The notes beneath the pieces were generated by a model that worked only from the letters and a program-made list of their open reading frames with translations, was not told where the DNA came from and made no database searches. The position numbers and the translations under genes are program-made. Shown here piece after piece: positions 1,368-11,830 of a stretch of DNA of 38,882 bases. Position 1 is the first letter of the stretch. Every line of letters begins with the position of its first letter. Where the stretch lies: assembly GCA_963715195.1 (NCBI GenBank), contig CAVQRT010000026.1:1-38882 (forward strand), written 5' to 3'. Origin of the DNA: Thermodesulfovibrionales bacterium. Lineage in GTDB: Bacteria > Nitrospirota > Thermodesulfovibrionia > Thermodesulfovibrionales > SM23-35.

Positions 1368-3463
1368 ATGAAAACTGCAGTAAACCTTGTGTTAGTCTTA
1401 ACTCTCGTATTCTGTAGCTGGATCACCAGCCCTGCCTTCGCCGCTGGCGGCGGCGGTGTTGTTACGGCCGATCCAACGAAGCACTTTCACCCCAAGGGGA
1501 AGATGCCATCAAAGTTCACGGTGGAATTACAGAACGGGCTTCGCAAGTCATTGCCGTTTGATGACGAGCGCGATTTTGAAGAGTCAAAGAGAGGCTTTAT
1601 CGCCGCTCCCGAATACATGCAGATCATGGCTGATGCAGGCAACGTTGCATGGGACATGGGCAGCTATGAATGGCTGTTGCAGGGCAAGGATTTCGACAGC
1701 ATCCACCCCTCGCTGCAGCGTCAGGCGATACTGAATATGGGATACGGTCTGTATGAGGTCGTGCCAGACAGAATCTACCAGGTCCGTGGCTACGATTTAG
1801 CGAATATCAGCTTTATCAAGGGCGAAACCGGATGGATTGTGTTCGATCCACTGACTGCCAAGGAAACCGCGAGGGCAGCGCTTGAGTTCATTAACGAGAA
1901 GCTCGGGAAGCGTCCGGTTGTGGCAGTCGTTTATTCGCATTCCCACGCTGATCACTTCGGTGGTGTTCGGGGGGTCGTGGATGAAGCGGATGTGAGAAGC
2001 GGCAAGGTCCCAGTGATCGCTCCTATTGGTTTCATGGATTATGCAGTCTCCGAGAATGTTTACGCCGGTAATGCAATGAGCCGAAGGCTGTTCTACCGGT
2101 ACGGGGTGCTCTTGCGAGAAGCCCCTTCGGCCATGTTGATCAGTCTATCGGGAAGAATACAGCGGCAGGTAATCTTGGTCTCATTCCGCCGACTGTCATT
2201 ATCGAAAAGGATATCGAGGAAATGACCGTCGACGGTGTAAAGATGATCTTCCAGAACACCCCGGGCACTGAGGCGCCTGCCGAGATGAACACCTACTTCC
2301 CGCAGTTCAAGGCCTTCTGGCAGCTCAGAACATTTGCGCAACCATCCACAATATTTACACATTACGTGGGGCCTTGGTTCGTGACCCCCTTAAATGGTAC
2401 AAGGATATTAACAAGGCACTCTACCTTTTCGGGCAGGAGGCAGAGGTGATGTTTGCCTCTCATAGCTGGCCGCGGTGGGGTAATGAGAGGATTCAGGAGA
2501 TCATACGGGCACAACGGGACACCTATGCGAATCTTAACAATGGCGTTTTGCACCTCGCCAACCAGGGGGTAACCATCAACCAGGTTCACAACGTCTATGA
2601 TGTGCCCCTAAGCCTCCAGCAACAATGGGCAGCACGCAGTTACCATGGCTCAGTTGCACACAACAGCCGGGCTGTCATCAACCGGTACCTTGGCTATTGG
2701 GACGCCAACCCCACAACACTGATTCCACTCTCACCGGAGGATTCCGCACCGCTCTATGTCGAAATGATGGGTGGCGCAGAGAAGATCATGAAAAAAGGCA
2801 GGGAACTTTTCGATGAGGGCAAGTACCGCCATGCTCAGGAGATACTGAACAAACTGGTCTATGCTGAACCGAAGAACCAGAAGGCGAAGGACCTATTGGC
2901 GGATGTATTTGAGCAGATTGGTTACCAGCAGGAAAGCCCCAGTGTCCGTAACAGCTTCCTTGCAGGGGCATATGAATTGCGCTCCGGGATACCTACAGGG
3001 GCCTCACCAAAGAGTGGAGGTCCGGATATGATCCGTGCCATGACCACCGAGTTGTGGCTGGACTTCCTTGGCATTCGTCTGGACAGCAAAAAGGCTGAGG
3101 GTAACGAGTTTACGATTAACTTGATCAGCGCCAGACAATGACGAGAAGTTCATCGTGGAGTTAAGCAATGCAACTCTGACCAATATCAAGGGATTCCAGG
3201 CCAAGGATGCTGACCTGACTGTTACTATCAACCGCGCTGATTTGGAGGATACAATGCGTGGGCAGTCTCCTTCGACGAGCAGATTGCCTCCGGGAAGGCA
3301 AAGCTCGTAGGCAACCGTGAGCCATACAAACAGCTGAAGGAATTGCTTAGTGCACTTCGACCTCGGATTCGAGATCATGCCGGGTACCGCACCGGACACA
3401 CCAGGCAAAACTGACATGGAAGTGTTCGAGCAAGAACCGCCGGCTCGGAGCGATGGAGGTTAA
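1368..3463 (+). CDS. Secreted alkyl/aryl-sulfatase (SdsA1/BDS1/YjcS type: MBL fold, dimerisation and SCP2-like domains), split by several frameshifts
   Basis: Signal peptide; YSHSHADHFGG MBL motif; TPGTEAPAEMN, FASHSWPRWG, YLGYWDANP in successive ORF fragments; ends FEIMPGT...SDGG* at 3463. Confidence 0.88.
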
Positions 3464-3576: not shown

Positions 3577-3779
3577 TGCCTATTACAATCAGAATTCCTC
3601 ACTTCTCATTCGAGATCAGAAGTGTTTCTTTGTACCCATATAGAGGGCACCTGTCAAGAGGTAAAACGATCCTATACCAAGAAAGCTTTTCTTGTTTCAT
3701 AGCTTAAAGTTATCATTGTCCATTACCATTGCCGTTTTTTCTTTACTATAGTGCGTCAGTCTTCACTGCGCCACGCACC

Positions 3780-4035
3780 CATCAGGATTAAGGTTGTACC
3801 CTAAGACTATACTGCAAGGCAAACCCTTTCCGCTTCAATGCGGACCAGAAAACCTTCGGTTCCGGATCGGGTCCATTTGTTATATATCAGATCGCGTGGT
3901 TATAAGCCAACCCACCACTGGCTCCCGACGCGGACAGTAAAGACACTGATAACTTTTATGTTACTGGCGGGGACGGTTTGCCACTCAGGTGCTTGGTTTT
4001 TCCCAACAAGTACACAGGTTCACCGTTCCCGCCAG
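3780..4035 (-). ncRNA. Candidate bridge/seek RNA of the IS110 element
   Basis: Stem 3964-3977/4022-4035 and stem-loop domain 3885-3951. 3794-3801 is identical to the element end 3630-3637. IS1111-type elements are known to encode guide RNA downstream of the transposase. RNA boundaries are approximate. Confidence 0.65.
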
Positions 4036-4039
4036 ATCT

Positions 4040-5059
4040 TTATGCAAAGGCTTTTTCCGGCATGAATACCACTCCATCCTTCATGATGTAATACGCAGCT
4101 CTGGCCAGCTTGTGAGCAAGTGCGTTATGTGCTATTGGAGCATTCGTTTTCTGCAGTTTGCGCTGGTAATATGTTCGGGATTCAGCATCGAACAGTCGTG
4201 CATGATCAGAGGCCTCTGAGAATGCCCATGCCAGATATTTGTTGCCGTTTTTCCTGTTGCCCGCGCCCTTCTTCTTGTCATTACTAAACCGTCCGCTGGG
4301 AACCTTCCTGCAATATGAGACATAGTTACCGACTTTCTGGAATCGATCAATCGAGCCGGTCTCCAATTGAATCGTGAATGCAAGTATCTTCCCAACTCCC
4401 GGAATACTCAAGAGACGGTCATAGGGATTGCTTAACTGTATTCTTCCACCAATGGTTGCCTCTATAGTTTTGATCTGCCTGGTCATAAAGTCTATGGCCT
4501 CCTTGCTCACTTTTCCAGCCAGTGCAAGATCCTCATTGCCCTGAAAGAGAGGCATTACTCTGTCCGTCGTTAGAATCTTTACATCGTTTGACTTAAGCCT
4601 GCTGCCCAGATTCCGCGCGATAATGTTTTGAAGACTGACGATAAGCGATGTCCGCAATCTTACTAAATGTCCTCTCTTCCGCAACAGGTCTCGTATTGGT
4701 CGCTCTTCCTTAGGATAAATGTAACCCTCTGGCAGTATGTTGAGCCGTAACATCTCAGTAAGCCAAAATGCATCATGTTTGTCATCGGAGTATTTCAGTC
4801 CAGCATATTGCTGGGTCTTCATCACATTGGCCAGATGTACCCGGTATCCCTCTTCCTTTAGCAGATCAACCAAAAAGTACCAGTTGTACGTTGACTCTAC
4901 AACAATCCCTTCAATATCAGCTTTGAATGGTTTGAGTGCTTCTTTGATCCTGGCTGGATCATTGGGAAGTTTCTTCTTGAATACTCGCTTGCCTTTCTCA
5001 TCGCTGATACCCAAGTACGAGTTACTTGAATGCAAATCAAAAGCTGCATATAATCTCAT
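4040..5059 (-). CDS. IS110-family DEDD recombinase/transposase
   Basis: MRLYAAFDLHS, VVEST, KYSDDKHDA (DEDD); LSIPGVG; PSGRFSND with candidate catalytic Ser; GNKYLAWAF. GGAGG RBS supports ATG 5059 rather than 5134. Confidence 0.95.
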   Translation of the reverse strand: MRLYAAFDLHSSNSYLGISDEKGKRVFKKKLPNDPARIKEALKPFKADIEGIVVESTYNWYFLVDLLKEEGYRVHLANVMKTQQYAGLKYSDDKHDAFWLTEMLRLNILPEGYIYPKEERPIRDLLRKRGHLVRLRTSLIVSLQNIIARNLGSRLKSNDVKILTTDRVMPLFQGNEDLALAGKVSKEAIDFMTRQIKTIEATIGGRIQLSNPYDRLLSIPGVGKILAFTIQLETGSIDRFQKVGNYVSYCRKVPSGRFSNDKKKGAGNRKNGNKYLAWAFSEASDHARLFDAESRTYYQRKLQKTNAPIAHNALAHKLARAAYYIMKDGVVFMPEKAFA

Positions 5060-5355
5060 ACGGCACCTCCTAAAGGTTAAGATTGGTTTCATTCCTTGAG
5101 CATACCGCAACTCGATATGCTCAGGAGGTGCCATCTATATGATTATCGGCTGTAGTTCGCAAGGCATGAGAACGCTCTGAAGTGCGGACTTATTGAAGTA
5201 GCAAACGCTAATTATCTCTTCGTAATTGTTATAAACCGGGACGGAGAGAGCCCCCTCTCTCTCGCAGGACCGGCCCCTCGGTTGTCCTTCCTGATAACTT
5301 GATATATATATAGTCATAACTGCAACAGAATTATAGTCGAGGTATAAAATAATGC

Positions 5356-5921: not shown

Positions 5922-7038
5922 ATGATAGTAAAGAGGTGGTGCGACACTAAAAAGCGTTTTCTCTATTCTGTACGTCTGAGGGATGCAGATGGTAAAAGAC
6001 GTATGTTTGGTTCTGCACACACTTCCATTAAGTTGGTTAGGGAATTTGAGGAGAAGAAAAAGCGAGAGATAGCTGAAAAGAAGATGTTTCCAGAGAGGTT
6101 TGTTCAACGGATTCAATTGAAGGACTTTATTCCTGAGTATCTAGAAAAGCACGCTTCAAGAAAAAGGTCATACCGTGATTATCTCAGTATCTGCAAGAAG
6201 CTCTCAGCGTTCTTTGGTGAGTACTATCTCGATCAGATTACTAAATATCATGTGGAGACATATCAGAGTATGCGTTTTGAAAAGGTCGGGGTGTATATGC
6301 TGAATCGTGAGATAACAATTCTGAAGGGGATATTCACTAAGGCTATTGATTGGGGTTTTGTGTTCAAGAATCCTGTGAAGGGGGTAAAACTGGAGAAGGA
6401 AAAACCTCGTTTCAGGTTTTTGAATGAACAGGAGAGAAATAAGCTCGTGGATGCCTGTAATAAGGGTTCCCAAGGCTCGCTATTTGGTTTCAATGGTCAG
6501 GGTTGACCTGCTTACTGGTCTTAGGAAAGAGGAGTTATTAAGCCTCAAATGGAGGGCTGTAGACTTGGATAAGGATGTTATCTGGGTAGAAGATGGGAAG
6601 GGAGGTGATCAGAGAAGAATCCCAATAAATGAGACTGCAAAGGGTGAGTTGTGCAGGCTTCGGGAGAAGAAAAGGGGAGAGTTTGTATTTCATGACAGGT
6701 ATGGGAGGCAGTATAAGGACATCAAGAAGTCATTTCATTCTGCTGTGAAAGATGCAGGGTTAATGGATGTCAGATTTCATGACCTGAGGCGTACATTTGC
6801 TACCATGTGCGTGTTTAATAATATCTCTCCTAAGACTCTCATGAAGTGGATGGGTCATAAGTCCATTGAGACAACTATGAGGTACTATGTGGTGTCTCCT
6901 GAGGACTATGAAGTAGAGGCAATCAAGAGGTTAGATGGTAACCATAAACCAACTGACGATATTGAAGAAAAGGGAAAAGCTCGCAAGTTACTGAAAAATA
7001 TGGTGAGCCGTGTAGGATTCGAACCTACGACCCGCTGA
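5922..7038 (+). CDS. Phage-type tyrosine integrase (frameshift near 6465)
   Basis: NPVKGVK, LLTGLRKEEL (R), GKGG (K), FHDLRRTFAT (HxxR), MGHKSIETTMRY (H, Y). Confidence 0.93.
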
Positions 7039-8661: not shown

Positions 8662-8767
8662 TTTTGCGAACTACTTCAATAAATACGCACCACGGAATAT
8701 TTTCGTGACATGCACGTTATTTCATCAACTACGCACCGTGCGCAACACTGGATAACTGCGGAGTACA
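8662..8767 (-). repeat. Partial copy D of the module-boundary repeat
   Basis: 8662-8689 matches 11662-11689 at 27/28. AACTGCGGAGTACA at 8754-8767 is identical to 11708-11721. Confidence 0.8.
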
Positions 8768-11441: not shown

Positions 11442-11553
11442 TTTTTTAGTAGGTAAGAATAAAGATTATTAATAGAAATATACAATATTTTAGCAAACTT
11501 ATTCCTTGAATATTATAAGATTATAGGAAGTAGTGAGCGAAGTATAGAATCCT

Positions 11554-11721
11554 TCTGAAGTGCGGACTACTTCTATGAATCAATAGGAGTTAGACTTTTC
11601 TGATTTGTTTGTTACTATGTGTAGCAAACAATTTTAAGATTTTTGAGATTTGAAATCCTTGTTTTGCGAACTTCTTCAATAAATACGCATTTAGGAATGC
11701 TCTCAAAAACTGCGGAGTACA
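11554..11721 (-). repeat. Copy B of the module-boundary repeat
   Basis: Block 11615-11680 is 58/66 identical to 22190-22255. 44-nt spacer, then GTGCGGACTAC at 11560-11570. TCTGAAGTGCGGACT at 11554-11568 is identical to 5176-5190. Confidence 0.85.
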
Positions 11722-11830
11722 TCAGCAAACACTCATATTTACATGCTCTGCGCAGTGTGGACTTGTAGGTAGACTTCCCCTGAATTGATGGACACTCCTA
11801 ATAGTTAGTATCATTTGATAGGAGGTGTTC

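Follow-up and report, generated by a model that had tools for sequence, protein, structure and literature searches.

An apparently intact IS1111-type insertion sequence with a predicted target loop, a donor multiloop and an additional target-type loop in its 3' RNA

The window (the 38,882-nucleotide stretch of DNA that was analysed as a whole) carries on its minus strand an IS110-family insertion sequence of 1514 bp with an IS1111-type layout, in which a transposase gene is preceded by 82 nt and followed by a non-coding region of 406 nt, counted from the stop codon to the end of the inverted repeat (Table 1). The assembly contains no second full copy, i.e. the element is single-copy. Around it are found an alkyl sulfatase gene (metallo-beta-lactamase fold) in pieces across frames (1368-3417) and a phage-type tyrosine integrase gene that is divided between two overlapping frames (5922-7038), the 3' end of which reads by eye like a tRNA fragment; ARAGORN finds no tRNA there.

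Table 1. Features of the insertion sequence and its flanks (window coordinates).
Feature	Position	Strand	Details and basis
Insertion sequence	3634..5147	-	6-nt left and 3-nt right extension; crossover predicted within 2-nt core; end conservation, contig breaks
Left terminal extension GATAAT	5142..5147	-	98-99% conserved per base, 112 left ends
Left subterminal inverted repeat	5126..5141	-	
Right subterminal inverted repeat, then GGT (3636-3634)	3637..3652	-	Kept in homologues
IS110 DEDD transposase/recombinase, 339 aa	4040..5059	-	D8, E55, D93, D96, S259; PF01548 + PF02371
Putative target-binding loop 1, seekRNA-like hairpin	3964..4035	-	Guide-flank concordance; stem with compensatory changes
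Loop-1 right-target guide (predicted)	4016-4006	-	
Loop-1 left-target guide, core and 2-nt handshake (predicted)	3993-3984	-	
3' RNA domain	3706..3956	-	Closing helix 3956-3942/3720-3706; predicted fold, z = -3.56 for 3700-4042
Second target-type loop	3864..3931	-	Closing helix 3931-3924/3871-3864; guide-like strands 3919-3910 and 3896-3886
Probable right-donor guide	3848..3857	-	Imperfect complement of left end; position and complementarity
8-mer of the earlier note	3794..3801	-	Arm of hypervariable hairpin within donor multiloop; not a guide
Left-donor guide region (predicted)	3774..3784	-	Left-donor guide 3782-3778, core guide 3777-3776, 2-nt handshake-like guide 3775-3774; conservation, core covariation
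-35 box TTGACA of circle promoter	3652..3657	-	
Right target flank	3628..3633	-	Contains the AA read as core in the earlier note; right-target guide is matched by core A and CAA
Left target flank	5148..5203	-	One copy of dispersed ~55-bp repeat; unoccupied copies end in loop-1 target

The deduced transposase combines a DEDD RuvC-like domain with a Transposase_20 domain, as expected for the broad IS110 family, and matches the NF033542 model with 148.5 bits (cutoff 140). Its start codon at 5059 is preceded by a ribosome-binding site (5071-5064); a longer, 364-aa start was rejected, its ATG at 5134 lying inside the left inverted repeat, where it is created by the single mismatch of the repeat. 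Residues D8, E55, D93 and D96 are present in all 132 distinct intact homologues (obtained from 147 open frames in 160 loci) and S259 in 129 of them; judged by motif position, these residues are presumably catalytic. The protein is only distantly related to ISSba8-family (24% identity over 302 columns) and IS4321-family proteins (match confined to the C-terminal 144 aa), and is 46% identical over 340 aa to an ISGsu4-family protein (annotation on AP028203.1). A sequence search of the PDB gave no match at E≤0.001. The open reading frame, the retained DEDD and serine positions and the structured guide RNA predicted on the 3' side agree with the suggestion of an earlier note on this DNA that an intact transposase is followed by a guide RNA.

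The comparative analysis used the best 79 of 337 confirmed genome stretches and the best 80 of 521 from metagenomes. The closest relatives share 81-93% amino acid identity with the window transposase, and the named ones among them are Nitrospirota records. Multi-copy genomes gave few new insertion sites and, except for five distant loci of which one was parsed, were left out of the counts. Right ends were placed in 122 elements, with six of them shifted by one base and four tandem duplications adjusted by hand.

The 16-nt arms of the inverted repeat are complementary at 15 positions (94%), as the earlier note had it; this match is far above chance and is conserved in homologues. Among the 112 distinct left ends, the extension GATAAT outside the repeat is almost invariant and is preceded by T in 91%. 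Among the 94 distinct right ends, the GG next to the repeat was fixed by the search pattern; it is followed by T in 83% and then by G in 93%, beyond which the letters become clade-dependent. An identical dinucleotide, mostly TG, is found at both ends in 92 of the 110 two-ended elements, and the G is common to both ends in 101 (the window is included in both counts). Judged from these alignments, the core is (T)G and the exchange would take place around it, giving terminal extensions of 6 nt on the left and 3 nt on the right (or 7 nt on the left if the shared core base is counted). Independent contigs are consistent with these borders, as two of run X1 cease matching at 3634 and one of run X5 ceases matching at 5147, with a foreign flank beyond. 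On the other hand, one divergent X1 contig (85% likeness) aligns on to 5158, which is evidence against this left end. Both cores of the window copy depart from TG, being CG on the left (5148-5147) and TA on the right (3634-3633), the sole such pair among 103.

The earlier note had placed the ends at 3630 and 5144 and joined them through a shared AA (or a single A) core, obtaining a promoter with a TACAAT (or TATAAT) -10 box and a donor guide at 3801-3794. The arithmetic of the AA join is literally right, as it yields TTGACA-17-TACAAT, an 11/12 promoter, together with an exact 8-mer match. Against this, the other copies show different ends and a different core: AA is common to both ends at those positions in only 3 of the 110 two-ended elements (window included), TACAA is possible in 2 of 110, the GAT to the left of the AA is conserved at 98-99%, the dinucleotide common to 92 elements sits further out on the left, and the contigs break at 3634 and 5147. 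The single-A version likewise disagrees with the (T)G seen in other copies.

A promoter formed only in the excised circle, which that note had proposed, is retained in a modified form, with a -10 box GATAAT at 18 bp rather than TACAAT or TATAAT at 17. The reconstructed circle junction of the window element reads TTGACA-18-GATAAT and, whichever core is chosen, leaves NATAAT at 18 bp. A promoter-like junction could be reconstructed in 112 of 122 elements, 108 of these with GATAAT, at spacers of 16-18. No internal minus-strand sigma70 match was found, and neither a circle junction nor an empty-site joint was present in the X1 and X5 contigs. By analogy with known elements, the insertion sequence would leave as a circle, in which the junction TTGACA-18-(G)ATAAT would drive the transposase and the downstream RNA. 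In one locus (L005) the left end is GAAAAT, which fits the probable right-donor guide better than the usual GATAAT, suggesting that the usual T is kept for the -10 box.

Directly after the stop codon, the RNA is predicted to begin with a hairpin (loop 1) that would select a target of the CACC-core-CAA type. From its covariation with the flanks, the first guide would pair with the right target on its top strand and the second with the left target on its bottom strand. This order of a top-strand guide 5' of a bottom-strand guide is that of IS1111 seekRNAs in the accessible text of PMC11187229. At 91 non-redundant sites, loop 1 predicts the flanks with 9.5 of 12 matches (5.7 permuted), to which the left-target guide contributes 4.54/6 (permuted 2.47, maximum 2.87) and the right-target guide 4.95/6 (permuted 3.19, maximum 3.58; 2000 permutations in each case), although, the loci being related, these permutation tests and those given below for the donor guides overstate significance. 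For the right guide, matches were scored in either of two registers, both in the data and in the permutations. The guides thus covary with target DNA, and the reprogrammability anticipated in the earlier note has a natural counterpart in the reprogramming seen among relatives. The core in loop 1 is followed by AT, equal to the start of the left end, in 109 of 116 elements; the AG of the window copy is a minority form (6/116). In each second guide, the dinucleotide that follows the core matches the recombinant product in the manner of the handshake guides described for IS621 (in the accessible portions of PMC11208158 and PMC13626964), and we infer by analogy that it is equivalent to these if the site is read in the reverse orientation.

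The remainder of the RNA is predicted to fold into a domain whose donor multiloop would read the ends of the element. A search against Rfam returned nothing beyond one sub-threshold chance match. In an alignment of 76 non-coding regions (330-470 nt), positions 3783-3778 and 3776 are conserved in 75-76 sequences, and their letters copy the right end plus core; position 3777 is A in five and C in one, all six in elements that have AG or CG as the right-end core. The two adjacent bases also follow the target, as 3775 matches right-target position +1 at 71 of 73 non-redundant sites (permuted mean 28.7, maximum 41) and 3774 matches position +2 at 58 of 73 (permuted mean 40.9, maximum 51). Conservation and covariation with the core in the sequences compared thus identify 3784-3776 as the left-donor guide. 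The right-donor guide (3857-3848) is one that we only infer, owing to its constant mismatch and little variation; it is nearly invariant and gains no support from covariation.

These guides, as well as loop 1 and a second target-type loop, had all escaped the earlier note, which assigned the donor-guide role to the 8-mer GGGTACAA, present at 3801-3794 and at 3637-3630. The exact occurrence is real and arises in only 1.25% of 20000 shuffled non-coding regions, a point in favor of the AA core. On the other hand, some end-derived 8-mer (near either end) turns up in 26% of 5000 Markov-shuffled regions, so that the match is not convincingly above chance. The 8-mer columns are variable, with the commonest base in only 28-47 of the 76 sequences, and do not covary with the donor in homologues; an element's own right-end 8-mer is found in the non-coding region of none of the 11 closest relatives (81-93% amino acid identity) and of 6 out of 120 elements overall. 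The predicted fold pairs these positions in a hairpin. We consider the whole model (AA or A core, ends at 3630 and 5144, TACAAT/TATAAT box and donor guide at 3801-3794) exceedingly improbable. The IS1111-type layout proposed in the same note agrees with every layout feature tested, and 3634-5147 is very probably an apparently intact, RNA-guided element of this type, with a circle promoter, targeting by loop 1, a donor multiloop and a (T)G core.

Within a dispersed host repeat, the window copy occupies an imperfect target. Agreement with its own loop 1 extends to only 7 of 12 positions, which places it in the bottom seven of the 91 sites. The left flank belongs to a ~55-bp repeat for which the search gave six matches at E<1e-4, including the four seed copies. 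Four unoccupied copies end in CACC-TA-(C/A)AA, the loop-1 target, and an alignment of the reconstructed empty site with two unoccupied copies runs through the junction; the ACAA at the right border, which contains the AA taken for a core, is therefore target DNA. The 11-12-base target pattern occurs four times in the genome (1.3 expected). As a general target the repeat was rejected, no convincing match to it being found beside the element in 21 close loci. Copies were located at 5148-5203, 8671-8707, 11544-11568 and 11671-11724 of the window and on contigs C20, C22 and C35 of G000; the repeat lies between foreign-looking genes and has arms around a 6-bp spacer, which presumably recall Xer/dif-type sites. 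A run X5 contig carries a related element beside letters similar to the repeat.

The weak target match and the non-TG cores raise the question of whether this copy is immobile, either because its junctions have drifted or because it was inserted by a partial match. Frameshifts in the neighbouring genes point the same way; half-match insertion is described for IS621 in the available part of 10.64898/2026.08.31.748434, and circles of ISEc11 needed intact flanks according to the accessible text of PMC11187229. On the other hand, the reading frame is open, the catalytic positions are intact and all RNA modules are present, and its three departures from the family consensus are common to close relatives. 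Immobility is, in our view, the less likely state of this copy.

Between loop 1 and the donor guides, the RNA contains a second target-type loop (loop 2) built on the scaffold of loop 1, a departure from the canonical bridge RNA with its one target and one donor loop. Loop 2 could be parsed in 121 of 122 elements, and an HMM of loop 1 reaches 5 bits or more on 59 of the 76 loop-2 regions but on no shuffled region. In an alignment of 28 sequences selected for diversity, compensatory changes are seen in the closing helix of loop 2. Loop 2 is also found in seven distant elements at 32-48% identity (six on plasmids, picked from 271 plasmid matches, and one genome locus), with patterns that were tuned after viewing them. 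The loop HMMs match none of five control IS110/IS1111 3' regions; being clade-trained, they would miss divergent loops.

The near-core guide bases of loop 2 resemble the loop 1 of the same element, with 5.88 of 9 matches vs 3.68 over 11 clusters (105 of the 121 elements fall into a single cluster, and one mis-parsed element was dropped) and 6.67 vs 4.06 over nine chosen lineages (0/10000). This likeness, the shared scaffold, the covarying helix and a loop-2 core guide that reads AG in all four parsed AG-core elements (possibly one clade) would fit a working second target loop, conferring two insertion specificities or serving as a standby guide. The insertion sites speak against this, as loop 1 fits better at 80 of 91, ties at 8 and loses at 3 by one base, and flank departures from loop 1 follow loop 2 at the chance rate (left 24/84 vs 0.30, right 25/54 vs 0.47). 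Moreover, the handshake AT is present in only 6 of 121 loops 2, the core guide stays TG in the sole CG-core element, and the genome contains no exact loop-2 target pattern. We rejected loop 2 as an independent targeting loop, finding no independent signal in the flanks, and as a guide for an internal pseudo-core in the right inverted repeat, a fit that by eye holds in some elements and fails in others.

The lack of an independent flank signal would suit a scaffold or vestige that does not pair with DNA and owes its likeness to loop 1 to occasional gene conversion. A 3' strand longer than that of loop 1 and an RNAalifold consensus that folds the interior as two hairpins are in line with this, while its retention (121 of 122 elements, plus relatives with 32-48% identity) is not; the hairpin linkers of the two loops are never identical, which argues against recent wholesale conversion. 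Given the overall account of the element preferred above, our leading, still tentative, choice is an auxiliary loop that would bind the recombinase and pair, close to the core, with the same target, without choosing sites itself. The scaffold or vestige comes next and is rather unlikely, and a working second target loop ranks last, as a doubtful reading. A broader proposal, which we regard as speculative, is that bridge RNAs with three loops are encoded by an ISGsu4-related branch of the IS1111-type elements. Loop 2 would then bind the target and be re-tuned with each reprogramming of loop 1, and would serve as a second specificity, as a standby guide or as a half-site excision clamp.

The accessible text of Siddiquee et al. 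2024 (PMC11187229) describes the IS1111 seekRNA elements ISEc11, ISPa11, ISKpn4 and ISPst6, with which the window element shares subterminal inverted repeats, a 3' non-coding region, a predicted junction promoter and a 339-aa transposase. Its extensions (6/3 nt) compare with the 7/3, occasionally 6/3, given there; its first hairpin of ~72 nt resembles a short seekRNA, whereas its predicted RNA of ~330 nt exceeds the 145-172 nt of long seekRNAs. It differs from the elements described there in the extra target-type loop, the 16-nt inverted repeat and a Ser-Asn in place of Ser-Gly. With the IS621 bridge RNA, as presented in the portions of PMC11208160, PMC11208158 and PMC13626964 available to us, it has in common separate (here predicted) target and donor loops, a 2-nt core, handshake-like dinucleotides that match the product, and DEDD plus Ser. 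Unlike IS621, its RNA lies downstream of the gene, the site is read in the opposite orientation, the core is TG, the donor guides are placed in a multiloop and the loops number three instead of two. The ISGsu4-family element (AP028203.1) has the same end pattern and, when parsed, a three-module RNA, with target guides that differ from those of the window element.

Donor-binding bases in the multiloop of many IS1111 elements were noted by Durrant et al. (PMC11208160), where the accessible text presents the donor role in IS1111-type RNA as a prediction only; the corresponding part of PMC11187229 leaves the role of the long RNA open. A second target loop is not described in the accessible text of the literature searched (including PMC13604230, 10.1101/2025.05.14.653916, 10.64898/2026.08.31.748434 and 10.64898/2026.10.21.760802, key figures of which were not visible). 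Many of the 86 models in 10.64898/2026.10.21.760802 deviate from IS621, according to its available part, so that a three-loop architecture may already be drawn there. Since the element class has been known since 2024, the element by itself is a new example; judged at the level of sequence, the mechanism is known and the RNA architecture with the third loop is a new variant. Natural covariation places the guides and reveals handshake-like bases in an IS1111-type RNA. If true, the presence of a third loop of the recombinase type, tracking the target, would amount to a new architecture bearing on retargeting and excision. Building this system requires the corrected ends and guides.

A ~395-bp derivative of a related element that lacks the transposase (G000, contig C30, 46119-46513) has its left inverted repeat fused directly into loop 1, followed by loop 2, the donor loop and a right inverted repeat with the -35 box. 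By eye, its right flank fits its loop 1 and its left flank fits its loop 2 better. With its different target guides, it is possibly a non-autonomous element or a source of trans-acting RNA. In 16 of 122 elements (L002, L004-L006, L008, L017, L054, L080, L081, L083, L090, L119, L121, L132, L136 and L152), the terminal 15-20 bp (right inverted repeat plus GG) is repeated in tandem one to six more times, which could stem from insertion into the internal pseudo-core of another copy plus homologous recombination, or from slippage. An extra 200-340 nt separates the stop codon from loop 1 in L031-L035, L038, L064, L070, L129, L151 and L152, and other elements carry long insertions inside the donor multiloop.
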